Shown here piece after piece: positions 5,108 to 44,032 of a stretch of 64,000 nucleotides of DNA; position 1 is the first letter of the stretch; each line of letters begins with the position of its first letter. The notes under the pieces are model-generated. The model searched no databases, was not told the origin of the DNA, and worked only from the letters and a program-made list of their open reading frames with translations. The translations under genes were made by a program, and so were the position numbers. This DNA is from an uncultured Candidatus Saccharibacteria bacterium (GTDB lineage Bacteria > Patescibacteriota > Minisyncoccia > Phycocordibacterales > UBA2100), in the NCBI GenBank assembly GCA_964623775.1, contig CAZUVH010000003.1, positions 79,400 to 143,399 of the forward strand, read 5' to 3'.

Positions 5108-5194
5108 GACACTTCTCCTCTGTATTCGTAAAGATCTTTCTGCGGGCTGCATAATGTCACATTTCGTTTTTTTCTCAACGCACACTGCTTCTAA

Positions 5195-6236: not shown

Positions 6237-6245
6237 GTTCTACAA

Positions 6246-6279
6246 AGACCTCCGCTTTCGCGGAGGTCTTTTCTTTTTA
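6246..6279. terminator. bidirectional terminator
   Basis: AGACCTCCGC-TTTC-GCGGAGGTCT followed by TTTTCTTTTT. Confidence 0.65.
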
Positions 6280-6282
6280 TAT

Positions 6283-6969: not shown

Positions 6970-7040
6970 AGATGATTAATGGTAGCACTTTTGCAGTAAT
7001 TGTCAATAGTACACTTATTCACACAGTACTTGCATTTATT

Positions 7041-7066
7041 TAGTGTATGAAATACACTAAGTGTAT
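7041..7066. promoter_or_regulatory. two overlapping palindromes sharing AGTGTAT/ATACACT half-sites; candidate NrtR operator at pnuC
   Basis: TAGTGTAT-GAA-ATACACTA (7041-7059) and ATACACT-A-AGTGTAT (7052-7066) were read directly. The array overlaps the annotated pnuC ATG and the nrtR/pnuC divergent promoter region. Confidence 0.55.
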
Positions 7067-7772: not shown

Positions 7773-7774
7773 GT

Positions 7775-8758: not shown

Positions 8759-8969
8759 GAAGTACACTTGACTTATGTACAATACTCATGTTGTATTGAG
8801 AGGTTGTATTGAACTCTCCGTGACTTTCAACCAACGTGCCTAGTCGCCCCCTTACTCGAAGAGCCCTGTTTCATGATCTAGCTATCGAAATAGCTATGTC
8901 AGCACACAAAACTGCATCACACAAACGACACGCAAGAGCGAGAGCATTTTCTACTTACCGAGGCAGGTA

Positions 8970-9929: not shown

Positions 9930-9933
9930 TACT

Positions 9934-10560
9934 ATGATGATACAAATGAAAAACGAAAAGGGTGTTGAGGTAAACGTCGCGGACGAGATGTGGGCGACGG
10001 CGTGGACGTACATTCGTACCGTCGTAGATACGGCGCGTGAGCCTTTTTTAATACTCAACCGCGATCTTCGAGTGGTCGCAGCCAACAGCTGCTTCTTCCG
10101 GACATTCGAGGTCAGTGAAAAAGAGACAGAAGGAAAGCTCATCTACCAGCTCGGAGATGGTCAATGGGATATTCCAAAACTGAAGAAGTTACTCGAAGAG
10201 ATCATCCCCAAAGACTCTTTTTTCAAGGATTACGAGGTGGATCATGAATTTCCCTCGATCGGGCGCAAGATCATGGTCCTCAATGCACGACAACTCTTCT
10301 ACAAGTCCGAAGCGACCAATATCGAGCCCTTGCCTCCGCTCGTACTCCTTGCGATGGAAGACGTGACCGATCGTCGGATGATCGCCGAGAAACTCGCCGA
10401 ATACGCCCAAAGGATTGAATCAAGTATCGGTCTAAAGATGCAAAATTTGGACGCTCGGGTGGCTGAGCTGACACGATTACACCAAGTCATTATCGACAGG
10501 GATGCGCAGGTGACGGCACTGACCGCTGAAATCGTGGATCTAAAAAAGAAGCTCGCGTAA
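9934..10560 (+). CDS. PAS-domain protein with C-terminal coiled coil
   Basis: PAS-like core (LILNRDLRVVAANSCFFRTF...GK). Heptad-like C-terminus. Immediately downstream of the HK. Confidence 0.6.
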   Translation: MMIQMKNEKGVEVNVADEMWATAWTYIRTVVDTAREPFLILNRDLRVVAANSCFFRTFEVSEKETEGKLIYQLGDGQWDIPKLKKLLEEIIPKDSFFKDYEVDHEFPSIGRKIMVLNARQLFYKSEATNIEPLPPLVLLAMEDVTDRRMIAEKLAEYAQRIESSIGLKMQNLDARVAELTRLHQVIIDRDAQVTALTAEIVDLKKKLA

Positions 10561-10666
10561 CATTTTACGAGAGAGTGTGCTTCAGCGCGCGCGAAGATCG
10601 CGCCGGCGAACGACTCCGTATTGAATGCGGAATGAAAAAGCCGCCCTCATCATGAAGGCGGCGAGT

Positions 10667-11239
10667 CTATTTGCAGTCAACGTCTTGCACGACGAGCGGA
10701 CGCGACCGTGCCGCCGCGATCTGCCAGTTGTCGAAATACCGCTTTGCAAAGCGCGGATCATTCTTGACGAGGTTTACGTTCTCCGCGTTTTTCTCAGCAG
10801 ATTTCGTAAAGTTGAGACTCCCAAGGACTACGTGTTTGCGGTCAATGATGAACACTTTGTTGTGAGCGATCTTCACTTTGTAATCCACAAGGACCGGAAT
10901 TCCTTCTTTCACATTGCACGATCCGGCCGGATATCGCTCCGATTCGTTGGTCTTGTCGAGGATCACGCGCACAACTATTCCGTGCTTGTTGGCGTACGAC
11001 ACAGCGTCGATGAACTCTTCGCGTGTATATCCGTAGGCCTGTACCAAGAGCTCGGATTTTGCAAGCTTGATCGCGTCGACCACGAATTTCGTGCAGTCCT
11101 CTTGCGGCTCAAAACACTCGGATAATTCGCCCGTGATGGGCGACGCCGAATGCGTGTTTTTGCCGATATGAGGTATCCAGAGACCGACTGCTATGCCGAC
11201 TACAAAAGCGGCAATAACGGACAGTACTTTCGCTCTCAT
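10667..11239 (-). CDS. phospholipase D-family (Nuc-like) nuclease/phosphodiesterase, secreted or membrane-anchored
   Basis: Single HKD motif (HNKVFIIDRKHVVLGSLNFT). N-terminal signal/anchor helix. Confidence 0.7.
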   Translation of the reverse strand: MRAKVLSVIAAFVVGIAVGLWIPHIGKNTHSASPITGELSECFEPQEDCTKFVVDAIKLAKSELLVQAYGYTREEFIDAVSYANKHGIVVRVILDKTNESERYPAGSCNVKEGIPVLVDYKVKIAHNKVFIIDRKHVVLGSLNFTKSAEKNAENVNLVKNDPRFAKRYFDNWQIAAARSRPLVVQDVDCK

Positions 11240-11407
11240 GGGCGCGATTCCTGTGTTGATTTCCGATCGATACTATACAATCTTTTGTCAAAAAAAGCAA
11301 AGAAGAATATTGACCAGTTCACTTTATTATGTTATACAAATTGTCGGATTAAACAGGTCTTTGACTCAAAGATCACACCCAATACTGAGGAAATCAGGAG
11401 AGGTACG

Positions 11408-12739
11408 ATGCGCATATCGCAGCAACAAGGGGACTTGATGGCAAAAGCCATCCTCATCCTTATCGGTGCTGTTGTCCTCGCGGACATCGGCTCTCTCGCA
11501 TACGTTGTTGCTCACGGCCTGGTAGGAAAGCTTTGGAAGGTGGTTTGGAGCAATTTCGAGTTTCCTATCGTTCTCGGGATCCTTGCACTCATCGGTTTTT
11601 ACTGGAAGTTCAAGTATCCGGAAGACTTCACGTTTGGCGAGCTGGCGGTCTATATCGTCGCCTTGCCGATCGTTGCGTTTCCGTTTGCTGCCATATTCTA
11701 CTTCTTCGCGACAGATCTACACGACAGGGAGATTTGGAATGGCCGCGTACAAGTGGCCACGTACGAGGAGAAGTGGACAGAATTAGTCACGTATACCGAG
11801 CAGGAGTGCACAGGAAGCGGGAAAGACCAGGTGTGCACGACTGTCACCAAGACACGGCATGATTATCATCCACCAAAATGGTACATCACGACCAGCAACG
11901 ATGAGACCATCAGCGTCTCGTCGCACGAGTATAGGGCGAGTGCCGAACGTTTTGGTAGCGAGGTGTTTAAGCGTCTCTATCGCGCAAATCAGGTAAGCTT
12001 TGGCGACGGTAATATGTACTATGCGGAATGGAAAGGGCAATCGACAACGATTATCCCGACCGCAGTGGAGCATCCGTTCGTCAACTACCTGCGTGCCTCC
12101 AATTCCATCACCAAGATCAACGGTGTTGCCGCTTCGTACAAAGAGCTGCTGTTGCCATATCCTCGCGTGCATGGAGGACGTTATGGCTATATCGAGATCG
12201 ATCGCGTCCTTTCCTCTGGAGTGAGTATTCCGGAAGACTGGAGGCGGAAGGTGAGTGACGGCCTCAGTGTCGCGCTTACGACACTCGGCTCTCAAAAGCA
12301 GGTCAATATCCTTGTATATGTGACGAGCGCAGACATCAACTTCTTCTACGCGCTCAAGGAACACTGGACCGACGGTAAGAAAAACGACGTCATCGTCGTT
12401 GTTGGTTCGCGTGACGGCAGTTCGATCGATTGGGTACAGGTGCAAGCCTGGACCAAGATCGAATTGTTCAAGATGCAGCTCTCGGATTCCATCCGTGAGC
12501 TGAAGACTCTCAGCGGCAACGCAGAGAGGTTTGTGGAGACGATCGTCACGCATGTGGCACGGGCTCCCGACACGGGCGGTTTCCAGCGAATGCCGATGGC
12601 AGAGCTGGAATATCTGCTCGTGGAAATCAAGCTGCCGTGGTGGGCCTCGATCCTTGTGGTCGTGCTCAACATGGTGGTTGTCACTCCCATCATCTTTCTA
12701 CTCTTGAACAACTCGCTGCGCCGCCAAAGGAGGGCGTAA
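11408..12739 (+). CDS. hypothetical membrane protein (N-terminal 4 TM, soluble middle, C-terminal TM)
   Basis: GGAGAGG RBS before the ATG at 11408. The upstream part of the long ORF-track frame is probably not translated. No family recognised. Confidence 0.5.
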   Translation: MRISQQQGDLMAKAILILIGAVVLADIGSLAYVVAHGLVGKLWKVVWSNFEFPIVLGILALIGFYWKFKYPEDFTFGELAVYIVALPIVAFPFAAIFYFFATDLHDREIWNGRVQVATYEEKWTELVTYTEQECTGSGKDQVCTTVTKTRHDYHPPKWYITTSNDETISVSSHEYRASAERFGSEVFKRLYRANQVSFGDGNMYYAEWKGQSTTIIPTAVEHPFVNYLRASNSITKINGVAASYKELLLPYPRVHGGRYGYIEIDRVLSSGVSIPEDWRRKVSDGLSVALTTLGSQKQVNILVYVTSADINFFYALKEHWTDGKKNDVIVVVGSRDGSSIDWVQVQAWTKIELFKMQLSDSIRELKTLSGNAERFVETIVTHVARAPDTGGFQRMPMAELEYLLVEIKLPWWASILVVVLNMVVVTPIIFLLLNNSLRRQRRA

Positions 12740-29046: not shown

Positions 29047-29278
29047 CGTATGAACGTACGTATCACACGTAAACACGATGCGACCAGGTTTCTATTAGGG
29101 GCAACTGTCTCCATCTGCTCCTTTTTTGGTGGGGTTTTCGTTGATGGGCATGCGGAAGCCGGTCATGTTCAGACTCCTTTTATAATGCATTTGTCCGGAG
29201 AGCACGATGAGTTATTGGATAATCGGCCGACTCAGCGAAAAAAGGAATTGCCAGCGGTTGCCTCAAATATGTAATGCT

Positions 29279-31561
29279 ATGAACAACAGTCATCACAATC
29301 ATCATCATAACCATCGCGGTATGCACGACAGATGCACCAGCGGGTGCTGTGACGCTCACAGGCGTCATCGCGACCACAAAACAAATCAAGGCATGGGCGG
29401 TGATACCGTTTACACCTGTCCGATGCATCCGGAGGTTATCGGGCAGAAAGAGGGCAAGTGCCCTGGCTGTGGTATGGATCTGATACCGGTCTTCGCAAAT
29501 ACTGTCGCGAGCGAACATACAGGACATGATTTTGAAAAAATGAGCCATATGGATCACGAAGCTGCGATGACAAATCCACAGATGGCAAAGAAGATGGAGG
29601 CCGATATGCGCAGAAGATTTTGGATCTCTTTTGTCCTCTCAATCCCGATATTTCTCTATTCTCCCGTGGGGATCAACTTCTTCGGTCTCAATCTCCCGGC
29701 GCCTATCCCTGTGAGCTGGATTCTTTTCATCCTCACGACCCCAATCGTATTTTGGACAGGTTCCATCTTCATTACGGGCACATACTACTCACTTAAAGCT
29801 CGCACACTCAACATGGCAGTCTTGATCGCCACCGGTGTGCTTGCGGCGTATTTATTCAGCGTGTTACTTACACTGATACAGCCGGAAAGCGAAACATTCT
29901 ATGAGGCTGCCGCGCTCCTCGTCACCTTCGTACTCTTCGGTCACTGGATGGAGATGAAGTCGCGTCGTGGCACGTCGGACGCGCTGCGAGCGCTTTTTGA
30001 TCTTGTCCCCCCGAAGGCTATTGTAATTCGGAATGGCAAAGAAATGAGTATTCCGAGCGCGGAAGTAATTCAGGGCGACACCGTTGTGCTTCGTCCCGGC
30101 GACAAGGTACCTGTCGACGGCGAAGTCATTGAGGGCGAGACATCGATCGACGAATCGCTCGTGACGGGCGAATCCATCCCTATTGTTAAAAAGTCTGGTG
30201 ACAAAATAACGGGCGGTTCAGTCAATCTGACAGGCTCGGTAAAATTTAAAGCGATGCAGGTTGGCTCGGAAACAGTACTCGCACAGATCATCAAGATGGT
30301 GGAGACCGCGCAAAACTCCAAAGCGCCAGGCCAACGCATCGCCGATCTATGGGCAGGGCGACTCGTCCTCGTTGCGCTTGGTTCAGGCACAGCGGCGTTC
30401 ATCGGCTGGTACTTCTTCGGTGATGCCGGTCTTTTGACTGCACTCACCTTTGCCGTTTCGACCGTTGTCATTGCCTGTCCGGATGCCTTGGGACTTGCCA
30501 CGCCGACCGCCGTCGCCGTTGGTACCGGCCTTGGTGCGAAGCACAACATTCTCATCAAGGATGCAGCGACACTCGAGAACACTTCAAGGCTCACAGCCAT
30601 CGTGCTCGATAAGACGGGTACCTTGACCGAGGGGAAGCCGAAAGTCACCGAAGTTGTTTCCACCAATTCCTACACTAAAGAGGATGTACTTGCGTACGCT
30701 GCCGCCGTAGAGCGAAGTTCAAATCACCCCATCAGTCTTGCCATTATCGAAGAGGCACAAAAGCGAAATGTGTCGATTGAGAAGAAAGTGGAAAAGTTTG
30801 AATCAATTGGCGGCCATGGTGTGCGCGCCGTTGCGGACGGTAAAGTAATTATTGCCGGAACCGAACGTCTGATGAATCAAAATAATATTGACCTTGCGCC
30901 ACTCAAAAAAGAGATCAATCGGCTACTCGACACGGGAAACACCATAAGCATCGTGGCTATAGAGGGCAAGATCGCGGGCGCTATCGGCGTAGCCGACACT
31001 GTGCGCGAGAGTACGAAGAAAACGATCCAGAAGCTCAAGGAAATGGGACTCGAGGTCGCCATGATTACCGGTGATCACGAGCAGGTAGCCAAAGCCATAT
31101 CCGCCGATCTTGGTATCGACCGCTATTTCGCCCAGGTGCTTCCCGAAGAGAAAGCAAAGTATGTCAAAAAACTTCAAGACGAAGGCAAGTTTGTAGCAAT
31201 GGTCGGCGATGGCATCAACGATGCGCCCGCACTCGCGCAATCGGACATCGGCATCGCTATAGGCGCGGGCACCGATGTCGCTATTGAAACCGGCAATATC
31301 GTCCTGATGAAATCAGACCCATATGACATCGTAGCGGCGCTACGACTCTCAAAAGCAACGGTCACGAAAATGAAGCAAAATCTCTTTTGGGCTGCAATTT
31401 ACAACGTGCTTGCGATTCCCGTCGCGGCTGGTGTCTTTTACACCTCGCTCGGCTGGTCCTTGCGACCCGAGATCGCTGCACTCCTCATGTCCGCGTCATC
31501 AATCATCGTCGCCACGAACGCCGTATTATTAAAACGAGTTGAGCCAAGGCTAAAAGAATAA
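29279..31561 (+). CDS. copA: copper-translocating P1B-type ATPase with His-rich N-terminus and CPxCGM metal-binding motif; TM6 motif is CPD rather than CPC
   Basis: DKTGTLT, TGES-like and GDGINDAP motifs. N-terminal HHNHHHNH plus YTCPMHPE..CPGCGM. TM6 reads IACPDALGLATP. Confidence 0.9.
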   Translation: MNNSHHNHHHNHRGMHDRCTSGCCDAHRRHRDHKTNQGMGGDTVYTCPMHPEVIGQKEGKCPGCGMDLIPVFANTVASEHTGHDFEKMSHMDHEAAMTNPQMAKKMEADMRRRFWISFVLSIPIFLYSPVGINFFGLNLPAPIPVSWILFILTTPIVFWTGSIFITGTYYSLKARTLNMAVLIATGVLAAYLFSVLLTLIQPESETFYEAAALLVTFVLFGHWMEMKSRRGTSDALRALFDLVPPKAIVIRNGKEMSIPSAEVIQGDTVVLRPGDKVPVDGEVIEGETSIDESLVTGESIPIVKKSGDKITGGSVNLTGSVKFKAMQVGSETVLAQIIKMVETAQNSKAPGQRIADLWAGRLVLVALGSGTAAFIGWYFFGDAGLLTALTFAVSTVVIACPDALGLATPTAVAVGTGLGAKHNILIKDAATLENTSRLTAIVLDKTGTLTEGKPKVTEVVSTNSYTKEDVLAYAAAVERSSNHPISLAIIEEAQKRNVSIEKKVEKFESIGGHGVRAVADGKVIIAGTERLMNQNNIDLAPLKKEINRLLDTGNTISIVAIEGKIAGAIGVADTVRESTKKTIQKLKEMGLEVAMITGDHEQVAKAISADLGIDRYFAQVLPEEKAKYVKKLQDEGKFVAMVGDGINDAPALAQSDIGIAIGAGTDVAIETGNIVLMKSDPYDIVAALRLSKATVTKMKQNLFWAAIYNVLAIPVAAGVFYTSLGWSLRPEIAALLMSASSIIVATNAVLLKRVEPRLKE

Positions 31562-33492: not shown

Positions 33493-34233
33493 TTGTTTCT
33501 CTTAACTATGGAATCAACATCTCAGCAGAAAAATAACTTCTTAACAGTACCTGTCGCGATCGTGATTGCGGGGGTGATCATTGCGATTAGCCTCTTTGTA
33601 GGTATTCGTAGCCGGACGCCAGTAGCTGCAAACCCGCAAGTACCGCAGGCTCCCGCTGGCAATCTCGAAGCGATGGCCCCGATCACTAAAGGAGATCACA
33701 TCCGAGGCAACGCGAATGCACCCATCACGATCGTCGAGTATTCGGATTTCGAGTGCCCTTTTTGTAAGCGCTTCCACGACACGATGAAGCAGGTCATGAG
33801 CGAATTTGGCGCAAGTGACAAGGTCGCATGGGTATACCGCCAGTTTCCGCTCGACGCGCTTCACTCGAAGGCGCGCAAGGAGGCCGTCGCTTCGGAGTGC
33901 GCGGCAGAGCTCGGCGGCAACGACGCATTCTGGAAATTCACCGACCGCTTCTTCGAGCTGACACCATCGAACAATCAAACCGACATTGATACGGTGCTTC
34001 CGCAAATCGCACGTGAAATCGGACTCAATGAGCAGAAATTCTCATCGTGTCTCGGCAGCGGAAAATATGATGCGCATGTGGAAGCCGACGTACAAAATGC
34101 TGGCGCAACGGGCGGCAACGGCACGCCGTGGAGCATTATTGTCGGGAAGAGCGGTAAGAAATATCCAATCAACGGTGCTCAGCCATACGATGCGATAAAA
34201 CAGCTTATCGAAGTTGCTCTGAAGGATAGATAG
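33493..34233 (+). CDS. DsbA-family thiol:disulfide oxidoreductase (membrane-anchored)
   Basis: CPFC active site in a thioredoxin-fold context (EYSDFECPFCKRFH). Confidence 0.75.
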   Translation: MFLLTMESTSQQKNNFLTVPVAIVIAGVIIAISLFVGIRSRTPVAANPQVPQAPAGNLEAMAPITKGDHIRGNANAPITIVEYSDFECPFCKRFHDTMKQVMSEFGASDKVAWVYRQFPLDALHSKARKEAVASECAAELGGNDAFWKFTDRFFELTPSNNQTDIDTVLPQIAREIGLNEQKFSSCLGSGKYDAHVEADVQNAGATGGNGTPWSIIVGKSGKKYPINGAQPYDAIKQLIEVALKDR

Positions 34234-34867: not shown

Positions 34868-35290
34868 ATGAAAAAAATCAAAACATCACACATTCTTATG
34901 GGATTCGCAACTATAATATTTGCTGGTCTTGTCCTCAATACATACGTCCAGTCAGGACGTACCGACATTATCGCGAAAAATGGGATGCATTGGCATCCGC
35001 AACTGTCAATGTATGTAAAAGGGGAAAAGATCGAAATTCCACAAAACATCGGCATCGGCCCAGTACATAATCCTATTCATACACATGACGACCTCCCGGC
35101 ATTGCATCTCGAATTTGGGGGTGTTGTACAGCAGAAGGACGTCATGCTCGGAAAGTTCTTCGACGCATGGGGCAAAGACATGCGCTCGTTTGGTTCCAGT
35201 ATGCGTATGACGGTCAATGGCAAGGAAAGTACTGAGTACGAAAATTACATGATGCGCGATGGTGATAAAATCGAGCTACGGTATGACTAA
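34868..35290 (+). CDS. hypothetical exported protein
   Basis: N-terminal anchor. HTHDD motif. No family recognised. Confidence 0.4.
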   Translation: MKKIKTSHILMGFATIIFAGLVLNTYVQSGRTDIIAKNGMHWHPQLSMYVKGEKIEIPQNIGIGPVHNPIHTHDDLPALHLEFGGVVQQKDVMLGKFFDAWGKDMRSFGSSMRMTVNGKESTEYENYMMRDGDKIELRYD

Positions 35291-36821
35291 GAAACAAATT
35301 GCCATCGTCGGCGGGGTGCTCGTGCTCGCGACTATCGCCGCGGCGGTACTGCTCGGATCGACCTCGGCGCAGCGAGCGCCGCAGGTAAAGGCGAATGAAA
35401 TCGTCGAACTAAAAAACGGCGACACGTACATGCTCACTGCGAGCTATATAACGAAAGAGATCGGCGGACGAGAGCAAAAGATGCTTGCATACAACGGCAT
35501 GATTCCTGGCCCAACGATCCGTGTGCAGCAGGGCGCGGAAATCACGGTCGACTTCAAGAACGAGACCGATATGCCCGCACTCCTCCACTCTCATGGTGTG
35601 CGCATGGACTATCGTTTCGACGGTGCGCAGACCTCGCAAGAGGAAATCGAGCCAGGCCAGTCGTTCAGTTACACGCTGAAATTCCCCGATGCCGGTGTGT
35701 ACTGGTATCATCCGCACGCCAATGAAGTGTACGGACAGCCGCTCGGGCTCTATGGCGCGTACGTCGTCATGCCGACCGATGAGGATTACTTCCCACCTGT
35801 AAACCGCGAAGAAGTCGTTTTTCTCTCCGATCTCCTGATGGATGGCGGAAGGATCGCGATAGACAAGAGGGGGGACGACTTCTCTCTCATGGGCCACTTC
35901 GGCAATCTCATGCTCGTGAATGGGCAAGAGAATTATGTGCTTCGTGCAAAAAAAGGTGAGGTTGTACGTCTGTATGTCATCAATGCGGCAAATGTGCGAC
36001 CGTTCAACTTTGCGATCAAGGGAATGAAGATGAAATTGATCGGCGGCGACAGTGGCGCGTACGAGAAAGCGACATGGCAAGAGAGCGTACTCCTCTCTCC
36101 GTCGGAGCGTGCAATCGTCGATGTCATGTTTACGATACCAACGACGATAATCAACGACACTCCGGCAGGTCTCACCGCGCTCGGGTCTGTCGTAATCGAT
36201 CCTGGCCAGGCGGGGACTTCGTACGCCTCACAGTTTGGTCAGCTGCAGGACAGTCGTGTCGTGAAAGACAGCATTGATACGTTTCGCCCGTATTTCAATA
36301 GGGCGCCCGACAGACGCATCGCGCTTACGCTCGATATGGGAATGGGCGGCGGACCTGGCACGCACATGATGCCAAATGGTACCGCGATGAGTAATACCGG
36401 AATGGCTATGGGTGTGCCTACGGGTGGCATTGAGTGGGAGGATGATATGGCGATGATGAATTCGATGTCGAACACCCAGATGGTGCAATGGCACATTGTC
36501 GATCAGGACACCGGCAAGAAAGACATGGATATAGATTGGACTTTCAGCAAAGGCGCGCCCGTTAAAATCCGCATCTTTAATGATCCACAATCGATGCATC
36601 CGATGCAGCACCCGATCCACTTCCACGGGCAGCGCTTCTTGGTGGTCGCGCGGGACGGAGTAGCGCAGACGAATCTCGGATGGAAGGACACGGTGCTCGT
36701 AAAAGCGGGGGAGACTGTCGATATTGTGCTCGATACGACCAATCCAGGAATCTGGATGGCGCACTGCCATATCGCCGAGCACCTCGCGGCGGGCATGATG
36801 TTTGCGTTCAAGGTGCAGTAA
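35283..36821 (+). CDS. multicopper oxidase (CueO/laccase-like) with Met-rich insert
   Basis: Four Cu-ligand motifs: HSHGV, WYHPHA, HPIHFHG, HCHIAEHLAAGM. Met-rich segment MGMGGGPGTHMMPNGTAMSNTGMAMG. Tat/Sec-type N-terminus. Confidence 0.9.
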   Translation: MTKKQIAIVGGVLVLATIAAAVLLGSTSAQRAPQVKANEIVELKNGDTYMLTASYITKEIGGREQKMLAYNGMIPGPTIRVQQGAEITVDFKNETDMPALLHSHGVRMDYRFDGAQTSQEEIEPGQSFSYTLKFPDAGVYWYHPHANEVYGQPLGLYGAYVVMPTDEDYFPPVNREEVVFLSDLLMDGGRIAIDKRGDDFSLMGHFGNLMLVNGQENYVLRAKKGEVVRLYVINAANVRPFNFAIKGMKMKLIGGDSGAYEKATWQESVLLSPSERAIVDVMFTIPTTIINDTPAGLTALGSVVIDPGQAGTSYASQFGQLQDSRVVKDSIDTFRPYFNRAPDRRIALTLDMGMGGGPGTHMMPNGTAMSNTGMAMGVPTGGIEWEDDMAMMNSMSNTQMVQWHIVDQDTGKKDMDIDWTFSKGAPVKIRIFNDPQSMHPMQHPIHFHGQRFLVVARDGVAQTNLGWKDTVLVKAGETVDIVLDTTNPGIWMAHCHIAEHLAAGMMFAFKVQ

Positions 36822-36823: not shown

Positions 36824-37628
36824 TCAAATAGGAAAGGGTCCGTCGATTCTCACTTCGTTACCTTCCTTATCGAAATAGTGGATGCGAATGCCTTTTTCTC
36901 CGATCGTTATGAACGAGCACGGCTCTGATGTCCACGAGCCGGAGTTGAAATAGTGCACGCCGTTTTGAGAGCGATGCTCGGCATGATGCGTGTGACCGCA
37001 AAATATATACTGCATTTTGATTTCGGCGGCATACTCCATTGCGCCACTCGCCACAAAGTCGAGTGCGCGGATGTAGCGTTTGGAGCGACTCTTGAGAACT
37101 GCGCACAGGCTGCGACCAAACGTCCCGGATTTTTGAATCAGGTGGTACATGCGCGCGGCAAAGGCACTGAGTTTGCGGTATTTGTGAAAGAAAATATCAA
37201 ATTGATCGCCGTGGATCGCGTGGAATCGCTTGCCGGCGTATTCCCATGAATATTCCTCGGCTACCTGCGCCCCGAGGAAATAGGCGAATACTCTGCCCAG
37301 ATCGTCGTCATGGTTGCCGGTGATCCATATATTATTACAGCCATCTTTTGCGCGATCATTTACATCCTCAAGGAGCGTGAGATGTTCGCGTGGGATGCGG
37401 TGTGGGCGCACGTGCGTCTCGCCCAAGCGTCGGCCTGCCTTGGAATCACGTCCCCGTTGCAGATTTGAATCGTCAAAAAAGTCGCCATTGGCGATGATTT
37501 GCTGAGCCTCAAACCGGCCCAGTGCCACGCGCAATGCGTGCGCATGGAAGAGGGGGGACCCCACGTGCGTATCACTAAAAATGATCGTATGGACGCGCTC
37601 TCGCGGGCTTTCGTGTGACATATACATC
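36824..37628 (-). CDS. calcineurin-like metallophosphoesterase (LpxH-like motif set)
   Basis: DTHVG, GDFFD, GNHD, HGD and GHTH motifs. AGGAGG RBS before ATGTATATG at 37628. Confidence 0.75.
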
Positions 37629-37823
37629 CTCCTGATTTCGGCGTTGGTACCACGGTACCATGAGTCACCTCCCCAGGGAACGGCCGAATGAGGAACTTCA
37701 TTGACACCCCCCACGGGGAGTTGTAAGGTTCGAGCAGAGTGTTTCTTTGACACCCAATTTCACTGAAATCCCTGATCGGAGGGGCAGCCCTTCTTTCGGA
37801 CACTTCCCACACAGGAGCCAGAC

Positions 37824-38480
37824 ATGAGCACAGAGACAACCCCGGTTGTCCGGCTCGGGCAAGTCCGAGCCACGCGGGATCACGACTACCTGCAATTCTT
37901 CTACGCCCTTCTTGCCGTCCTCGCAGTCATGTGCGGACTCGGATGGGGGTGGCAGTCCACCACGTACCTGCAGTACGCGCACAATGCAATCGGCCTTCCG
38001 TTCAGCGTGACATTCGTCGCGCTGCTCACGTACGGCCTTCTCAGTGGTCTTGTGCAGTGCTGGAAGGTCTCGCGTGCTATCAACAAGGTCAAGCATTGCG
38101 CAAGTATCGAGGAACTTCATACGTTCTTCGGTTTCGAGCCCAACTCAAAGGTATCGACCGATTATCTGACCGACGTCGTCGCTGATGATCTTGAGCGCCG
38201 TGTAGACGGTGTTGAATACGTCAAGCGGCTTTCAGTCATGGTCGGATTTTTTGGTACCGTCGTCGGGATCATGATCGTCGTCGGCTCCCTCGAAGGTGTT
38301 CGCTCGGCAGACGATGTCTTTAAGGCACTTCCAGGAATCGCACATGGTCTCAAGATCGCTTTCGGTACGACACTCGTCGGCATTATCGTCGGCGTGATCG
38401 TCGGACAGATGGCGCGCCTTGTGCGTAACGCTGCGATGATGCTGAAGGCTCGCTTGCTTCGCGTGTTGCAGCAGACATGA
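37824..38480 (+). CDS. MotA/TolQ/ExbB-family proton-channel protein
   Basis: 3 TM. Family signature across TM2-TM3: FFGTVVGIM, then 16 aa, then ALPGIAHGLKIAFGTTLVGIIVGVIV. Compare ExbB LFGTVWGIM...VAPGIAEALLATAIGL. AGGAG RBS. Confidence 0.7.
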   Translation: MSTETTPVVRLGQVRATRDHDYLQFFYALLAVLAVMCGLGWGWQSTTYLQYAHNAIGLPFSVTFVALLTYGLLSGLVQCWKVSRAINKVKHCASIEELHTFFGFEPNSKVSTDYLTDVVADDLERRVDGVEYVKRLSVMVGFFGTVVGIMIVVGSLEGVRSADDVFKALPGIAHGLKIAFGTTLVGIIVGVIVGQMARLVRNAAMMLKARLLRVLQQT

Positions 38481-38490
38481 GGGGAAACCG

Positions 38491-39138
38491 ATGAAACGTC
38501 GTAGCTTATTCGGTAGCCAAGCCGACGAGTCAGAGCAGATCGTAGCCAACGATTCGCTCATGAATGCGTTCGGCGCGATCCTCGTGCTCATGATCATTAC
38601 TCTGAGCCTGGTCAACACATCGGGCAAACATGCGGTCAGGGCCTCGGATCCCAGCGGCAACGTGAAATTCGAGATCTACTGGCCCAATGAGCACAACACC
38701 GACGTCGATCTGTGGGCACAAGGTCCGCAGGGCGACCCTGTCGGGTATTCCAACAAAGGCGGAGTGATTCTCAACTTGCTTCGCGACGACCTCGGCAAGA
38801 CGGATCCAAACGATCCGATCAACTACGAGGTGACGATGTCGCGCGGCATCTACTCCGGCAAGCACTGCGCCACCGCGCATCTCTATTCGAATCGCTCCGG
38901 CGTACTACCGATGCATGTGACGGCGACCGTCAAGGTCTCCAAAAGCATCGGCAAATCGGAAAAGGGGGATGAGAAAACCATCCTCTCCACGCAGCTCGAC
39001 CTCACGGAGATCGGTCAGGAACGAAATCTCTTTTGCTTCTGGCTCGACGATAGGGGAGAATTGGTGACAGAGGGAGAGAACAAGCCGTTCACTTCCGATT
39101 TCATCAAGCTTCGTCCGATGACGAGCTCGGCATATTAG
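38491..39138 (+). CDS. ExbD/TolR-like anchored protein with a novel about 170-aa periplasmic domain
   Basis: Short cytoplasmic N-terminus, then a single TM carrying an Asp/Asn (NDSLMNAFGAILVLMIITLSLV) like the ExbD/TolR/MotB plug helix. No OmpA-like or ExbD C-domain motifs were seen. Confidence 0.45.
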   Translation: MKRRSLFGSQADESEQIVANDSLMNAFGAILVLMIITLSLVNTSGKHAVRASDPSGNVKFEIYWPNEHNTDVDLWAQGPQGDPVGYSNKGGVILNLLRDDLGKTDPNDPINYEVTMSRGIYSGKHCATAHLYSNRSGVLPMHVTATVKVSKSIGKSEKGDEKTILSTQLDLTEIGQERNLFCFWLDDRGELVTEGENKPFTSDFIKLRPMTSSAY

Positions 39139-39147
39139 GAGGACCGC

Positions 39148-39783
39148 ATGAACATCTTCCAAAAGATGTGGGCGACATCTGTTGATTTCGTCGGCTCTAT
39201 GCCGTCGAAATTCAATGACCTGCTCGCCATACTGAAGGTCCCCACGATCTTTCTCGGGGGATTTACGGTCAGTGCGCTGATCATTGCGCTCTGTGCAGCG
39301 CTCTTCCTGCTCGCGTTCTATGCGATACAGCGAAAAGGGCTCACGGCGAAATTCATCACCGTCTTCGTACTCCTCTTTGCTGTCCCTGGATTTTTTGTGG
39401 CCATGGTCGAACAGCTCTCTCGTCCGAAAGAGCTTTCGATGCAGTGGCTGCAGCAGCAGGGTGAAAAAGGGATTTCGGTAGATTCGGTGAAAGTCTCTCC
39501 GCCGAGGCGAATCTATATCATGATGGAGCAAGGAGGCGAATCGCGCCTCTACTACATTCCATGGTCTAAGAAAGCTGAGGAGTCGCTCAAAAAGGCGATT
39601 GAGAAACGCAAAGGCCGCGAAGGTAAGGGCGGCGGCGATCTGCGCTTACGCTTCGAGCGATCGCTCGAGGATGAGCCGCAGTTCTACGAAACTCCGTGGC
39701 CCGCCCCGCCTCCCAAGGACGGAGACGGCGACAGGGAGCAGTCACCTCCGCATCGTCCGCTCATTATCGAACGCGACGCGTGA
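39148..39783 (+). CDS. hypothetical membrane protein with Pro-rich acidic C-terminal tail
   Basis: 2-3 TM. C-terminus reads ETPWPAPPPKDGDGDREQSPPHRP. Confidence 0.45.
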   Translation: MNIFQKMWATSVDFVGSMPSKFNDLLAILKVPTIFLGGFTVSALIIALCAALFLLAFYAIQRKGLTAKFITVFVLLFAVPGFFVAMVEQLSRPKELSMQWLQQQGEKGISVDSVKVSPPRRIYIMMEQGGESRLYYIPWSKKAEESLKKAIEKRKGREGKGGGDLRLRFERSLEDEPQFYETPWPAPPPKDGDGDREQSPPHRPLIIERDA

Positions 39784-39896
39784 CTACAAGAGCCATCAGG
39801 AACTTCCTGGTGGCTCTTTTTCTTTGATGTACAGAAGCTTGACGCTATAAAGTATCTAACGTACGGTAATTCCAGGAAAAAGTGAAAGGACATCTC

Positions 39897-40910
39897 ATGT
39901 TTGCGCGATTCGTACTATCCATTGTCTGTACGTTCGCTCTCGCCGCTCCCGCCTTTTCGCAGGTCGCTGAAATGGCTCGCATCGATGCCGGGAGCAAGCA
40001 ATACCTCTTACGGGTGCTCGTAGAATCTCGGGGAAGCATGGGATCAGCTGAGCTTATCAAGACGCCCGAAGGTAAGATTCGCATCCTGACCAATCATCAT
40101 GTCGTTGGTGATGCCAAGGAAGTTTTGGTCCAGTTCCCGAACGAGTTTTGGCAAAAAGTCCCCGTGCTTGGGACCGACTCGCGCGCTGACCTCGCTCTTT
40201 TGGGGACGCCGACGAACCTGCCGCCGTACGCCAAGCCGATCGCGTTTGCCAAGACGCCTGCAAAGGTCGGTGATCAGATATTCGCCATCGGCTATCCGCT
40301 TGGCTCATACAACATCGCGTACGGATTAGTGACGTCTCTGACGACACCTGCCATTCCTGGTCTTCGTGGTATGAGGACTCATCAAGCACCATTGACACAG
40401 GGCAACTCGGGCGGCGCACTCGTGCGCCTCGATGATCGAAGTGATCCGGAGCTCGTGGGTATCAATACCGCCATTAGTGGAGGAGACGGCAACATGAGCT
40501 ACTTTATACCTGCCGCGGTGGCGCAGAACCTTCTGCGTAAGTTGGAGAATGGCGCAGTCGTCCACGCAGTTATGGGCGTCGGTCTTGCCGATGCCACAAA
40601 CGTGAGCCCGACTGCATACACACAGATCACCAACCGACCCTACCCGCCTCCACGCAAGGGAATTATTATCTCCGCGGTCGGAAATGGCTCAAGTGCCGAT
40701 CGCGCCGGCGTAAAGGTCGGGGACATGATTGTTAAGTGTGAGGCAATGAACAGCGGCGTATGGAAGCAGTTGCCCACCGGCAACTCTGCGGAGTTCTCCG
40801 ACGAAGTGTTCTTCAACATCGAGCCCGGCACGCGCGGTCGCCTCACCGTGCTGCGCGGGGACAGAGAGCTCACGCTCGATATCGAATTTGCTGCCGCATC
40901 GCCTTCATAA
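39897..40910 (+). CDS. HtrA/DegP-family periplasmic serine protease with PDZ domain
   Basis: Catalytic triad context: TNHHVV (His), DLALL (Asp), GNSGGAL (Ser). Signal peptide. The ATG at 39897 is preferred over the GTG at 39882. Confidence 0.8.
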   Translation: MFARFVLSIVCTFALAAPAFSQVAEMARIDAGSKQYLLRVLVESRGSMGSAELIKTPEGKIRILTNHHVVGDAKEVLVQFPNEFWQKVPVLGTDSRADLALLGTPTNLPPYAKPIAFAKTPAKVGDQIFAIGYPLGSYNIAYGLVTSLTTPAIPGLRGMRTHQAPLTQGNSGGALVRLDDRSDPELVGINTAISGGDGNMSYFIPAAVAQNLLRKLENGAVVHAVMGVGLADATNVSPTAYTQITNRPYPPPRKGIIISAVGNGSSADRAGVKVGDMIVKCEAMNSGVWKQLPTGNSAEFSDEVFFNIEPGTRGRLTVLRGDRELTLDIEFAAASPS

Positions 40911-40926
40911 CGGCACAGAAAAATTC

Positions 40927-40961
40927 ACCCCGACCTGATCAGGTCGGGGTGATCTTTTTTG
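40927..40961 (+). terminator. strong rho-independent terminator after the protease gene
   Basis: CACCCCGACCTGATCAGGTCGGGGTG followed by ATCTTTTTTG. Confidence 0.8.
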
Positions 40962-41292: not shown

Positions 41293-41601
41293 ATGAAGTA
41301 TTCAAAATGCACCGGCAAAGAACCGGAGTGCCCCGTCGTGAAAGTGGAGAATCCGGATGGAAGCAGTAGCCGTTCTTGTGCTCGCTGCGGACTCTCGTAC
41401 AAAAGAATACGGTGCACCGCGTGTGCCGGAGTTTCAGGTCGTTTCAAGCCTCTCTGTCATGAATGTCACGGTGTCGGCTATATCGAGATAAAGATCTTGC
41501 CGACAAACTGCAACGCCGAGCAGCCGAATTGCCCGGTCTTCTTCGATCCAAGTGTCGGCGGTTGGGAATGCAAGCGCTGCGGTGCGAGCGGTCCCTGTTG
41601 A
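41293..41601 (+). CDS. small Cys-rich protein with DnaJ-type CxxCxGxG zinc-finger repeats
   Basis: CTACAGVSG and CHECHGVG repeats plus further CxxC pairs. Confidence 0.5.
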   Translation: MKYSKCTGKEPECPVVKVENPDGSSSRSCARCGLSYKRIRCTACAGVSGRFKPLCHECHGVGYIEIKILPTNCNAEQPNCPVFFDPSVGGWECKRCGASGPC

Positions 41602-42024: not shown

Positions 42025-42657
42025 ATGGCTCGAGTGTGGACTTTCATCCTCATTGTCAGTGCGTTTATGCTCCAATCCTCCCATGCGCAGCAGGGAGTAC
42101 AGCCTTCCGGGCTGGCACAGCAGTATGCGCAGCAAAAGCAGGCTCCAAGGCCGGCACGAAAGACGCCGCAGTCGCTCGATGACTGGTTTACGGTGCTCGA
42201 AATCGCACCTGATCAAGAGAGCGCCAAGCTCGCCGAGCAGAATATCTTGCGGATGTGGCTCGACACGAATAGTCCGACAACCGGCATCCTGATGTCTCGC
42301 GTGCAAGAAATGCTCAACCCCAAGCACGGCGGAGCGTATAGCGATGAAGTATTCAAGGTATTGGACGCTATCGTCAATACGAATCCCGAATATTTTCAGG
42401 CACGAGCACTTCGAGCACAACTGTATTTCCAGAAGGGCGATATCGGCGAAGCGCTGATCGATATGCGATTCGTGCTGACCCGCGAGCCGAGGCACTTCCC
42501 GGTGCTTACCGGGCTCGGCGTGATCCTGCAGCAAGTGGGTGAAGATAGAAAGGCGCTCGAAATATACCGCCGTGTCATGAAGATCAATCCGCACATGGAA
42601 AAAGTCCCCGATCTCATCAAACAATTGGAGATCCCGGTCGAAGGGCGCGATATCTGA
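42025..42657 (+). CDS. secreted TPR-repeat protein
   Basis: Signal peptide, then TPR-like helical repeats. Confidence 0.6.
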   Translation: MARVWTFILIVSAFMLQSSHAQQGVQPSGLAQQYAQQKQAPRPARKTPQSLDDWFTVLEIAPDQESAKLAEQNILRMWLDTNSPTTGILMSRVQEMLNPKHGGAYSDEVFKVLDAIVNTNPEYFQARALRAQLYFQKGDIGEALIDMRFVLTREPRHFPVLTGLGVILQQVGEDRKALEIYRRVMKINPHMEKVPDLIKQLEIPVEGRDI

Positions 42658-42718: not shown

Positions 42719-44032
42719 TCATTGAGTGCGAAGAAGTCGAAGGGCTTCTTGCAGTGCCTTGTCGTCGGCAGCGTTCGGCGGGACGTACGCCTGCGAGCCG
42801 CTCTGTTCTTCGTCGCCAGTTTTGAGATGGCCTTTCAAGGACGCTTCGCCCTTGCTGCTCGTTTTGCCCTTTAGCTCCTCGGGCTCGTCTTGCAGTACTT
42901 CGACGTCGGGCACGATGCCTTTTGCCTGAATCGTCTTTCCCGACGGGGTGTAGTACCGCGCGGTCGTCAGACGCAAGGCGCCATTTTCACCGCGAAGTCC
43001 GAGCGGTATGATCGTTTGTACCGATCCTTTACCAAATGAACGCGAGCCGACAATGGTCGCGCGCCTATGATCCTGCAGCGCTCCGGCGACGATCTCTGAT
43101 GCGGAGGCTGAGCCGCCGTTGATGAGGACCATGATCGGCTTTCCTTTGGTGAGGTCGCCTATGACGGGCGAATGTCGCATGGAGCCGCGATCGGCTTGCG
43201 CGCGGCCGACATCGTTGGGATTCCGACCACGGGTCGAAACGATCTCGCCGCGCTCGAGGAACGCATCGGACACGGTGACCGCCTCGTCGAGGAGTCCACC
43301 GGGATTGTTGCGCAGATCGATGATGTAGCCCTTGAGCTTTTTCCCGATCAGTGCCGACTGCTTACTGATCTCTTTCTTGAGACCTTCCGTCGTCTGTTCG
43401 TTGAACACCGTGATACGGATATACGCGACATCATCTTCGACACGTCCTCTTACCGAGCGGACTGTCACGACGGCTCGCGTGAGCGACATGTCGACCGGAT
43501 CTCCCTGTCCCTTGCGCACGACCTTCAATTTGATAGCCGTATTCGGTGGACCGCGCATCTTTTCGACAGCCTGATTGAGGCTCATGCCTTTCACATCGAC
43601 GTCGTCGATCTGAATGATGAGATCATTGGCCATAATGCCGGCTTTCGAGGCGGGCGTATCGTCGATAGGGGTGATCACCTTGATCACGCCATCCTCCATC
43701 GTGACTTCGATGCCGAGGCCGCCGAATTCGCCGCGAGTCGATTGCTGCATGTCGGAGAAATCTCGCGCGCTCATATAGCTTGAGTGCGGATCGAGACCAC
43801 TGAGCATGCCCCTGATCGCATCTTCGATCAGCTTGGTGTCATCGGGCTTCTCGACGTAGCTGTTGCGGATCTGCTCGAATACGTCGCCGAGCAGATTGAG
43901 CTTCCGGTAGACTTCGGAACTTTCCGGACTGGCAATTGCTTGTGGGAAACCCCACCTGTGTTCGATTGAAATGCCGAAAAGTGCGATCGAACAGGTAGCG
44001 CCGAAAAGTAGACCAGCGACTGTCTTACGCAT
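42719..44032 (-). CDS. ctpA: carboxyl-terminal processing protease (S41 family, PDZ domain)
   Basis: S41 Ser/Lys dyad context (GGSASASE...K). PDZ segment. N-terminal signal anchor. Confidence 0.85.
   Translation of the reverse strand: MRKTVAGLLFGATCSIALFGISIEHRWGFPQAIASPESSEVYRKLNLLGDVFEQIRNSYVEKPDDTKLIEDAIRGMLSGLDPHSSYMSARDFSDMQQSTRGEFGGLGIEVTMEDGVIKVITPIDDTPASKAGIMANDLIIQIDDVDVKGMSLNQAVEKMRGPPNTAIKLKVVRKGQGDPVDMSLTRAVVTVRSVRGRVEDDVAYIRITVFNEQTTEGLKKEISKQSALIGKKLKGYIIDLRNNPGGLLDEAVTVSDAFLERGEIVSTRGRNPNDVGRAQADRGSMRHSPVIGDLTKGKPIMVLINGGSASASEIVAGALQDHRRATIVGSRSFGKGSVQTIIPLGLRGENGALRLTTARYYTPSGKTIQAKGIVPDVEVLQDEPEELKGKTSSKGEASLKGHLKTGDEEQSGSQAYVPPNAADDKALQEALRLLRTQ

Follow-up and report, generated by a model that had tools for sequence, protein, structure and literature searches.

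The locus and its non-coding elements

Four open reading frames on one strand, as claimed in a preliminary description of the locus, lie in this part of the window (the whole 64,000-nucleotide stretch of DNA that was analysed; Table 1). The first three, genes 1-3, span 37824-39783 and form a tight three-gene module. Only 10 nt separate gene 1 from gene 2, and 9 nt gene 2 from gene 3, with a GGAG-type ribosome binding site before both gene 2 and gene 3. The claim that all four genes are tightly spaced with good ribosome binding sites holds for these two junctions, but not for that between genes 3 and 4 where the gap is 113 nt, counting gene 4 from the ATG at 39897 (the start adopted here, and also chosen by other gene callers). 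Within this gap, beginning 4 nt past the gene 3 stop codon, is a terminator-like hairpin with a folding energy of -23.3 kcal/mol (z -4.66); none of 200 shuffled versions folds equally well. Hairpin and gap together make a single four-gene transcript doubtful. A strong terminator had also been claimed at the end of the cluster, and one is present there (-30 kcal/mol, z -8.7).

Table 1. Features of the locus, in window coordinates
Feature	Position	Strand	Description
Metallophosphoesterase gene	probable start near 37624	minus	on the opposite side of the intergenic region from gene 1
Divergent intergenic region	37625..37823		between the metallophosphoesterase gene and gene 1
TTGACACCC copies	37701-37709 and 37747-37755		intergenic region 5' of gene 1
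Gene 1 (A subunit)	37824..38480	+	218 aa; minimal 4-TM MotA/ExbB/TolQ-family protein
Gene 2 (B subunit)	38491..39138	+	215 aa; N-in single TM helix with Asp21, linker, periplasmic beta-sandwich
Gene 3 (C subunit)	39148..39783	+	211 aa; two-TM hairpin, LSRPK motif, small alpha/beta domain, Pro-rich tail
Terminator-like hairpin	39788..39818	+	14 bp stem, 3 nt loop, then UUUUUCUUU (U-run)
Gene 4 (HtrA-type serine protease)	39897..40910	+	337 aa from the ATG; 342 aa from a GTG at 39882
Strong intrinsic terminator	40925..40952		3' of gene 4; reads on both strands

In the intergenic region 5' of gene 1, two direct repeats had been described as 44 bp apart. Both are there, as copies of TTGACACCC, though their spacing is 46 bp from start to start. 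The window has three copies of this sequence (0.29 expected), and each intergenic copy includes a perfect -35 hexamer, TTGACA. A promoter scan of the intergenic region gave no full sigma-70 match; the copies are putative -35 boxes or a putative operator. Two related DNAs, L006 and L007, encode proteins identical to those of the window.

The three subunits

Gene 1 belongs to the MotA/ExbB/TolQ family. It matches Pfam MotA_ExbB (PF01618) over residues 120-202 with E=6.7e-10 and 39.2 bits (cut-off 22.9), and over 70 homologues the conservation of the TM3 motif LGLIGTVxGF and of the TM4 motif GMsvALyTTLvG is 60-90% or more, with GTV (TM3) and TT (TM4) as the motifs kept family-wide. In ExbB and TolQ the Thr-bearing motifs of these helices line the proton path around the Asp of the partner protein. 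The cytoplasmic loop of gene 1 is only about 58 aa, and in the A subunits of phages, which are reduced to the membrane core, it is about 10 residues.

Weak matches to TolQ and ZorA profiles are confined to TM3-TM4. ZorA models are the best matches of gene 1 in both PADLOC and NCBIfam (E=3e-7 and 5e-5), and the trypsin domain of gene 4 weakly matches defence-associated proteases in PADLOC, as might be expected of a Zorya-like or other anti-phage defence system. However, the ZorA matches involve residues 120-201, corresponding to 70-80 residues of profiles that are 420-780 positions long, and gene 1, at its modest size, lacks the long cytoplasmic tail of ZorA. There is no ZorB-type peptidoglycan-binding domain, no ZorC, ZorD or ZorE gene nearby, no PADLOC match for gene 2 or gene 3 and no defence island in the neighbourhoods of bacterial copies, while phages themselves carry the module. 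A defence function of this kind is therefore considered very unlikely.

The topology proposed for gene 2, a short N-terminus and one Asp-bearing TM helix, is borne out. The N-terminus is basic and inside. The Asp (D21) lies close to the cytoplasmic end of the helix and does not vary among 61 homologues, which range from Patescibacteria-labelled metagenome-assembled genomes (MAGs) to Proteobacteria; it is also kept in all phage copies. The periplasmic domain is an eight-strand beta-sandwich whose closest fold is TerD. It had been described as devoid of OmpA and ExbD motifs, and this is the case: no member of the family has a Pfam match to an OmpA-like domain, the fold of which is also different, and no ExbD/TolR-type alpha/beta periplasmic domain was found in gene 2. 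Profiles, fold and PDB comparison all failed to reveal a recognisable ExbD, TonB or TolA variant, and gene 2 has no matching family in Pfam, NCBIfam or PADLOC.

TerD is a soluble, cytoplasmic, Ca-binding protein of tellurite, phage and colicin resistance, and the DUF2135 domain is that of E. coli YfaP; we know of neither on a motor-type TM helix. The likeness to TerD is one of fold, unlike a family relationship: none of the 61 members matches TerD in Pfam, gene 2 has no sequence match to TerD in the PDB, and its ectodomain shows neither the TerD sequence profile nor the Ca-binding motifs. To DUF2135 there may be a faint sequence similarity, below significance. Two of the 61 members match its profile (PF09906), at only E=0.0025, and alignment of gene 2 with YfaP by hhalign gives E=0.031 and a probability of only 1.6%, with colinear motifs. 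Ca binding by the beta-sandwich is putative but probable.

B is the best-conserved component: it has 42% identity between the window and Proteobacteria, while A and C reach 27% and 30%, respectively. In marine alphaproteobacterial loci two B paralogues flank A, in the order B1-A-B2-C, an arrangement that is consistent with two copies of B per complex.

Gene 3 encodes, as was anticipated, a membrane protein with a Pro-rich acidic tail. It has two TM helices, and in the alignment its tail carries a conserved FY..P.P..PPK; L90, K94, R133, P138, Y180, P183 and K190 are invariant. None of 27 members has a Pfam match, and gene 3 has no sequence match in the PDB and no informative fold match. Its model is of moderate confidence (AF2 pLDDT 71), and the sole structural overlap found, a helix match to PorM, is not meaningful. 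Charge is absent from the short N-terminus and amounts to +2 to +5 net in the TM1-TM2 loop, from which the positive-inside rule by itself places the C-terminal domain outside. The small domain and the Pro-rich tail are thus predicted to face outward.

An A subunit, a B subunit and a Pro-rich third protein recall the ExbB-ExbD-TonB and TolQ-TolR-TolA layouts, and a divergent Ton or Tol system energising an outer-membrane process was considered. However, ExbD, TonB_C and TolA domains occur in no member, and gene 3, with its two TM helices, has no conserved His or SHLS-type motif in its alignment and is not a recognisable variant of TonB or TolA. TonB-dependent receptor, Pal and TolB genes were not found in the neighbourhoods of bacterial copies. 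The linker between the TM helix and the beta-sandwich of gene 2 is only about 15 residues. In addition, some copies of the module come from Patescibacteria-labelled MAGs, and Patescibacteria are thought to lack an outer membrane. We regard this alternative as highly improbable.

Distribution of the module and its association with proteases

Genes 1-3 are one copy of a widespread, unnamed membrane module, and conservation as a unit covers these three genes but not the fourth. The preliminary description left open whether the synteny is conserved elsewhere. For genes 1-3 it is, across phyla and in phages: about 330 species-representative genomes have the same order, most of them Alpha- and Gammaproteobacteria or Patescibacteria-labelled MAGs, and the family comprises about 1,900 clusters at 50% identity. 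Of 80 species-representative loci, 77-80 show this order, with the genes overlapping or no more than 10 nt apart. Directly upstream of the gene 2 homologue there is a gene 1 homologue in 77 of the 80 genome loci and in 49 of the 56 viral ones; gene 3 homologues were found in 87 of 87 loci and in 50 of the 56 viral loci. The full order recurs in 49-50 of the 56 viral contigs (IMG/VR). Azospirillum brasilense Sp7 has the same order, the isolate Benzoatithermus flavus also has the module, and so do at least six rhizobiophage lineages, including phage 16-3. The module is not a rarity of the genome from which the window comes, and it is phage-borne too. Pfam, NCBIfam, PADLOC and PHROGs give it no family assignment; wherever a copy has been named, the name is "hypothetical", and a literature search found no paper on the module.

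Its presence in many phage genomes of several types raises the issue of whether it is a phage-derived lysis or superinfection-exclusion module, in which A and B would form a gated proton leak and depolarise the membrane, or would remodel the envelope with the protease, and of which the bacterial copies would be domesticated morons. In 16-3-like phages the module follows the endolysin and small membrane proteins, and three endolysin types occupy the same position: Phage_lysozyme (L144, L137), Muramidase (L109) and GH19 (L136). The stripped-down phage A subunits also fit. However, this adjacency comes from a single related phage group; elsewhere among phages the module is not placed with lysis genes but between those for portal and capsid, or with the early genes. 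In bacteria, entire families (Geminicoccaceae and Granulosicoccaceae, for instance) have the module; there are no phage genes close to these copies, and the neighbours are otherwise housekeeping genes (ABC-F, HU, GlmS). A phage origin and role of this type is, on balance, unlikely.

Gene 4 was described as a secreted DegP-like protease with a PDZ domain, and its features agree with this. A signal peptide is visible, the match to Pfam Trypsin_2 has E=6e-18, and the catalytic-motif residues are His (TNHHV), Asp (DLALL) and Ser (GNSGG). There is one PDZ domain, for which the PDZ_2 match (E=1.3e-5) is sub-threshold at 25.8 bits against 27. The match to the NCBIfam Do-family (E=2e-35) scores 122 bits, far under the equivalog cut-off of 416, so gene 4 is a member of the HtrA family and not an equivalog of DegP, DegQ or DegS.

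That the stator and the protease form an obligate four-gene operon, with the former existing to drive or regulate the latter, would fit the adjacency seen in the window and its 78%-identical relative, and its recurrence in other lineages. In the window's clade a protease also adjoins the module in L155 and L158. It does so too in a Patescibacteria MAG locus (L004, where the protease has no obvious signal peptide), in the Granulosicoccaceae loci L056, L066 and L085, in locus L086, in four cultured phage lineages and in 11 of 56 viral contigs. However, 74 of the 80 species-representative loci, and 5 of the 10 window-clade loci examined (P0004, P0010 and P0013 are among those without), showed no protease beside the module, and in the window itself gene 4 stands behind the hairpin and the long gap. 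The trypsin-fold proteases beside the module are of at least three unrelated subtypes, and since type, order and strand all vary, the protease is not a fixed member of the operon. The obligate arrangement is accordingly judged improbable. Of the four-gene unit originally described, the conserved order of genes 1-3 stands while the inclusion of the HtrA gene does not, and the proposed coupling of a stator to an envelope protease survives in a weaker form, with independent support from the different proteases of these other lineages and phages. Absence from most loci, taken with the recurrence of unrelated subtypes, shows that the link is facultative but real.

Relationship to known envelope motors and a possible mechanism

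The earlier statement that the layout is not that of Ton, Tol, Mot or Zorya is upheld by the absence of ExbD, TonB, TolA and OmpA domains and of Zor effectors. With ExbB-ExbD-TonB and TolQ-TolR-TolA the module nevertheless shares an A subunit in PF01618 with Thr-bearing TM motifs, an N-in, single-pass B whose helix bears an essential-type Asp towards its cytoplasmic end, tight gene linkage, and a third membrane protein with a Pro-rich segment that is predicted to face the periplasm. It differs in that A is a 4-TM protein with hardly any cytoplasmic domain, in that the B ectodomain is a TerD/DUF2135-like beta-sandwich rather than the ExbD/TolR alpha/beta fold, and in that the third protein is a two-TM hairpin with its Pro-rich part at the very C-terminus. 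The neighbourhood has no outer-membrane partner, and the module extends to Patescibacteria-labelled MAGs and phages. MotAB/PomAB are alike in their 4-TM A subunit, TM Asp in B and adjacent genes; however, the module's A has no large cytoplasmic torque-generating loop, its B no OmpA-like peptidoglycan-binding domain, and the module has no flagellar context and an extra third subunit. In GldLM/PorLM a dimeric single-pass subunit with periplasmic beta-sandwich domains is similarly set in a membrane ring and performs periplasmic work, but GldL is outside PF01618, GldM is long and multi-domain, and the module has no T9SS context.

A further parallel is provided by TolQ-like proteins whose partners are TM-anchored vWA proteins with a 'transpore helix' (Williams-Jones et al. 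2025, PMC12204202). These too combine a MotA/ExbB/TolQ-type ring with an Asp-bearing partner that has a non-canonical periplasmic domain, and the partners are sometimes heterologous pairs, paralleling the B1-A-B2-C loci. There the periplasmic domain is vWA in contrast to the beta-sandwich of the module, and these systems have no gene 3-type hairpin protein; the section of the account that was consulted reports no association with phages or proteases.

The module probably works as a motor driven by protons, a relative of the flagellar stator and of Ton and Tol, and the best reading is that it represents a new subfamily of 5:2-type envelope motors driven by the proton motive force. That it is a self-contained motor of the MotAB/ExbBD/TolQR kind, with its output on the outer face and the protease as a facultative partner, is the explanation towards which we lean, with some reserve. 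By analogy with known members, the stoichiometry would be 5:2 and protons would drive movement or rotation. Gene 1 would form the proton-conducting outer ring, presumably a pentamer, and gene 2 the inner axle, presumably a dimer; alternate protonation of the gene 2 Asp would convert proton flow to relative rotation or ratcheting. As the A subunit has almost no cytoplasmic mass, most extremely in the phage copies, all of the work would have to be done at the outer face of the cytoplasmic membrane. The output would pass via the conserved beta-sandwich of gene 2, and also via gene 3 in the role of a transducer or adaptor like TonB or TolA, though not homologous to them. Potentially the motor positions, activates or feeds an extracytoplasmic trypsin-fold protease where such an optional partner is present, and a physical coupling of the two may exist; here the partner would be the one-PDZ HtrA, probably on its own transcript.

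A bolder proposal, which we think has a small chance of being correct, is that proton power, by way of the module, takes the place of ATP in extracytoplasmic proteolysis or envelope remodelling, with phages carrying stripped-down copies along with their own protease. If so, the motor would draw on the membrane potential to pull on envelope proteins, to unfold them or to present them to a trypsin-fold protease, and would correspond to the AAA+ proteases, but in the periplasm, where there is no ATP. The phage copies would then act on the host envelope during infection, remodelling it to bring about lysis, to remove receptors or to exclude competitors.

To our knowledge, ion-driven 5:2 motors (Mot, Ton, Tol, Gld and Zor) are the only bacterial means of delivering energy beyond the cytoplasmic membrane, and each such family recognised so far has led to a new piece of envelope biology. 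The presence of the module in Azospirillum brasilense, Benzoatithermus flavus and Sinorhizobium phage 16-3, all tractable systems, makes its function directly testable. It would add a motor family in which the B-subunit ectodomain and the third subunit are both new, with no cytoplasmic output and with a recurrent serine-protease partner, and this family would span diderm proteobacterial lineages, Patescibacteria-labelled MAGs and compact phage copies.

Anatomy and conservation of the locus

Genes 1–3 of the locus encode a MotA/ExbB-type A subunit, a single-pass B subunit with a membrane Asp and a C subunit with a hairpin of two transmembrane (TM) helices, and gene 4, for an HtrA-type protease, follows them. 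The four same-strand ORFs are as given in the preliminary description, which took them to be a tightly spaced operon. This is true of genes 1–3, where the gaps are 10 and 9 nt and each has a GGAG-type ribosome-binding site (good sites had been reported), but not of gene 4, since 113 nt separate gene 3 from its ATG and a hairpin followed by a U-run begins 4 nt past gene 3. The strong terminator earlier placed 3′ of gene 4 is present, and it is stronger than this hairpin. Real too are the two direct repeats, TTGACACCC, noted upstream of gene 1; each contains a perfect −35 hexamer, and three copies are observed across the window where 0.29 are expected. No rRNA or tRNA genes were found within the window.

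Coordinates of the module, its neighbours and features at related loci
Locus	Feature	Position	Strand	Remark
Window	HMBD P-type ATPase	29207-31561		
Window	DsbA-like protein	33493-34233		
Window	Multicopper oxidase	35259-36821		
Window	Calcineurin-like metallophosphoesterase	36824-37624	−	
Window	TTGACACCC copies	37701; 37747		
Window	Gene 1	37824-38480	+	218 aa
Window	Gene 2	38491-39138	+	215 aa
Window	Gene 3	39148-39783	+	211 aa
Window	Hairpin and U-run	39788-39818		14-bp stem; dG −23.3 kcal/mol, z −4.7
Window	Gene 4	39882/39897-40910	+	342/337 aa
Window	Cys-rich ORF	41293-41601	+	102 aa
Window	Secreted TPR protein	42025-42657	+	
Window	S41 C-terminal processing peptidase	42719-44032	−	PDZ domain, CtpB-like N-domain
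L054	B1-A-B2-C	1911-4311		Rickettsiales- or Pelagibacterales-labelled
L064	B1-A-B2-C	3301-5687		Rickettsiales- or Pelagibacterales-labelled
L088	Copper/redox genes	7886-12582		
L090	Copper/redox genes	194-1627		
L091 (phage)	Phosphatase	7373-8098		
L144 (phage)	Phosphatase	8652-9302		
L094 (RHph_I1_18)	Phosphatase	1611-2228		
L094 (RHph_I1_18)	von Willebrand factor A protein	6868-8301		
L092 (RHph_X2_25)	HNH gene	4541-5083		
L097 (TM3_3_14B)	Seg-like gene	3237-3995		
L115, L118, L145, L149, L152 (phage)	Head block with module	about 250-8200		

A prophage origin of the window locus was rejected, as phage genes are absent nearby and the surroundings are respiratory and copper-handling genes. The ATPase, DsbA-like protein and multicopper oxidase genes are just upstream of the module, and in two relatives (L088, L090) genes for a CsoR-type repressor, P-type ATPase, DUF305 and HMBD/MauE are near it. 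Such copper/redox neighbours may reflect shared genome ancestry instead of a functional link. The metallophosphoesterase gene is divergent from the module in the window, and in several phages (L091, L094 and L144 among them) metallophosphoesterase/NinI-like phosphatase genes are 1.5–3 kb from it. As NinI-type phosphatases are common in phages, this proximity is probably coincidence. Also near the module in the window are the genes for the TPR protein and S41 peptidase, further envelope-proteolysis genes. The Cys-rich ORF, downstream of the protease gene and surrounded by small unannotated ORFs, has repeated CxxC pairs that resemble a zinc ribbon, and gives weak DZR and Cas12f-TNB matches (E about 0.04).

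When each GTDB species is represented by one genome, a scan finds 330 loci, most of them in Alphaproteobacteria (Geminicoccaceae, Rhodospirillales and Rickettsiales- or Pelagibacterales-labelled MAGs) or Gammaproteobacteria (Granulosicoccaceae, Chromatiales). Further carriers are Patescibacteria-labelled MAGs and the isolate Benzoatithermus flavus, and in Azospirillum brasilense Sp7 the three genes are on the p1 chromid. Of the 80 loci retrieved, all have a gene 3 homologue directly downstream of gene 2 and 77 have a gene 1 homologue directly upstream of it; the start and stop codons of the module genes usually overlap. A further conserved bacterial neighbour was sought and rejected, the adjacent genes being variable between loci and of housekeeping type (ABC-F, HU, GlmS). 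The conserved unit is the three-gene module plus an optional fourth gene: the four-gene synteny proposed earlier is found elsewhere for genes 1–3, but gene 4 is not a constant part of it. Marine alphaproteobacterial loci have the order B1-A-B2-C (L054 and L064 have this arrangement), in which two gene 2 paralogues, both with the Asp, flank gene 1. This order is compatible with a two-copy B subunit.

The three subunits and known motor systems

Gene 1 scores above threshold against Pfam MotA_ExbB (E=6.7e-10); matches to ZorA, TolQ and ExbB models are weak and restricted to the core. The A subunit has four TM helices, and its family-wide conserved motifs, LGLIGTVxGF in TM3 and ALyTTLvG in TM4, have their counterparts in the Thr-bearing helices of ExbB and TolQ. 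In the gene 1 product the cytoplasmic loop has only ~58 residues, and in phage A subunits, which are 113–148 aa, it is essentially absent.

Genes 2 and 3 have no family match in Pfam, NCBIfam, PADLOC or PHROGs, and against PDB sequences their family profiles give one chance TPR match only. The B subunit has a basic N-terminus and then one TM helix, and its Asp21 is invariant (61 sequences). In an AF2 model (pLDDT 87) a long helix is joined by a ~15-residue linker to an eight-strand beta-sandwich; gene 2 itself has no PDB sequence match. A Pfam scan of the 61 members yields two weak DUF2135 matches and nothing else, matches to ExbD, OmpA and TonB being absent, and when the family is aligned by hhalign with E. 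coli YfaP (DUF2135) the motifs line up at an E-value, 0.031, that is not significant. The invariant polar residues of the ectodomain are N57, D71, D73, Y86, S87, N88, R98, D99, D100, N111, E113, R118, H130 and Y132. B is the best conserved subunit, with 42% identity between window and Proteobacteria (C 30%, A 27%). Among the 2,734 homologues from a gene 2 search, “hypothetical protein” is the only name given, and Pfam domains are absent. An exhaustive profile search gives 1,903 clusters at 50% identity (1,374 at E<=1e-10), and the best 150 of the 1,903 are 117–260 aa, mostly about 190–230, nearly all with a single matched stretch.

In the C subunit the two-TM hairpin is accompanied by an LSRPK(P) motif, a small domain of alpha/beta type and a tail with the conserved pattern FY..P.P..PPK. 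Its short N-terminus is uncharged and the loop between the helices has a net charge of +2 to +5, from which the positive-inside rule predicts an outward orientation of the C-terminal domain and tail. The structure model of gene 3 is moderate (pLDDT 71), was made with an alignment shallower than the diverse family alignment A3, and has no informative structural relatives. Because gene 3 evolves fast, a direct homologue search with it finds only 3 proteins; third-gene homology at other loci was established by local profile searches. In the family as collected from a large database, marine 182-aa versions dominate, Tara samples included.

The module would work as Ton and Tol do, yet it lacks the ExbD fold, the TonB_C/TolA domain and an SHLS-type helix, and with these defining domains absent Ton/Tol membership was rejected. 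It differs from MotAB in having neither torque loop nor OmpA domain, and from Zorya in having no ZorA tail, ZorB domain or effector; Zorya identity was rejected since the matches span the TM core only. Nor is it GldLM. The earlier view that the layout is unlike Ton, Tol, Mot and Zorya is thus borne out by the missing parts, and in Pfam, PDB and fold comparisons neither gene 2 nor gene 3 is recognisable as a TonB, TolA or ExbD variant. The nearest published concept is that of the TolQ-like/vWA “transpore helix” systems of 2025, whose ectodomain differs from that of B and which have no third protein (PMC12204202). The module is undescribed in the papers found, which come from part of the journals, and an earlier description is possible; the same literature held nothing relevant on TerD/DUF2135 linked to MotA/ExbB or on phage-encoded stators.

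The protease partner and the phage copies

The gene 4 product is a secreted protease of Trypsin_2 type that has a single PDZ domain and the catalytic triad of HtrA proteases. In the clade to which the window belongs, an adjacent protease gene occurs in the window itself, downstream at P0002 (78% identity to window gene 2; HtrA plus PDZ), downstream and convergent at P0006/L155 (428-aa TM-anchored Trypsin_2), directly upstream at P0014/L158 (372-aa TM-anchored Trypsin_2) and downstream at P0016/L004 (240-aa Trypsin_2). None was seen at P0004, P0010, P0013, P0008 or P0011, the loci of the last two ending early on the upstream side. With a broader protease profile, a convergent Trypsin_2-plus-PDZ gene was found right after gene 3 in Granulosicoccaceae (L056, L085) and a trypsin-fold protease gene 0.9 kb upstream at locus L086; at L066, also of Granulosicoccaceae, one is 1 kb downstream.

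By tblastn, gene 2 matches ten rhizobiophage records among cultured phage genomes. The p036–p042 run of phage 16-3 encodes a secreted trypsin-like protease (p036), a mini A subunit of 139 aa (p038), B (p040) and C (p042), the A, B and C family profiles matching at E=2e-8, 7e-40 and 6e-11 respectively (E-values for a database size set large on purpose). In RHph_X2_25 and TM3_3_14B the gene order is that of 16-3, with homing endonucleases inserted; the HNH gene splits B from C in the former and the Seg-like gene splits A from B in the latter. N3_19 has a three-gene run, the third gene matching the C profile at only E=0.36, and a trypsin-like peptidase 2.7 kb downstream of it. For N34 the match is significant for B only; its neighbours are taken as A and C from their position (A profile E=0.13, no C profile match). 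In the T4-like I1_18 all three genes are present and no protease is adjacent. Notably, in RHph_I1_18 a von Willebrand factor A protein is encoded 2.3 kb downstream of the module, past a tRNA cluster; a recent account proposes such proteins as TolQ-like motor partners (PMC12204202).

In IMG/VR, B is encoded on 56 contigs, with A directly upstream on 49 and C downstream on 50; on 11 the gene immediately before A encodes a trypsin-fold protease. Terminase, portal and capsid genes near these modules show that the contigs are real phage genomes. In the 16-3-like group the module is 3′ of the endolysin gene, the endolysin at this place being of three different types, and in another group it is between portal and capsid genes. 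The order in this head-block group is terminase, portal (DUF4055), a 239-aa protein, A-B-C and an HK97/SrpI-like capsid; a head-morphogenesis block is an unusual site for a membrane-protein cassette.

The linked proteases form at least three subgroups without mutual BLAST matches (HtrA with one PDZ, TM-anchored without PDZ, and short secreted proteases of phages). Since only a few of the thousands of genes in a bacterial genome encode such proteases, their recurring adjacency, in unrelated bacteria and in phages and with differing protease type, order and strand, is hard to attribute to chance. The pattern argues for a functional but facultative partnership and is no demonstration of an obligate operon of four genes. 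The intuition that the protease belongs with the motor genes survives as a recurrent trypsin-fold partner, but not as a fixed fourth member of the unit.

Proposed working and role

A proton-driven ring-and-axle complex like those of MotAB, ExbBD and TolQR is the most likely form of the core, judged from the homology of A and from B's topology and invariant Asp, with stoichiometry and movement presumed by analogy. The architecture-level explanation as a whole is somewhat favoured. With A having little or no cytoplasmic mass, all output would be on the outer side of the cytoplasmic membrane. It would be channelled via the constrained beta-sandwich of B, a probable metal-binding domain with calcium as the putative ligand, and also via C, through its predicted outward-facing domain and its Pro-rich tail; C would have a TonB/TolA-like role while being homologous to neither. 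The protease, where present, would be coupled as client or effector. In cells the module might serve envelope quality control or remodelling, and in phages envelope manipulation, lysis or exclusion. The module is a real, widespread and unannotated variant within the ion-driven envelope-motor family, common to bacteria and phages and with a recurrent serine-protease partner.
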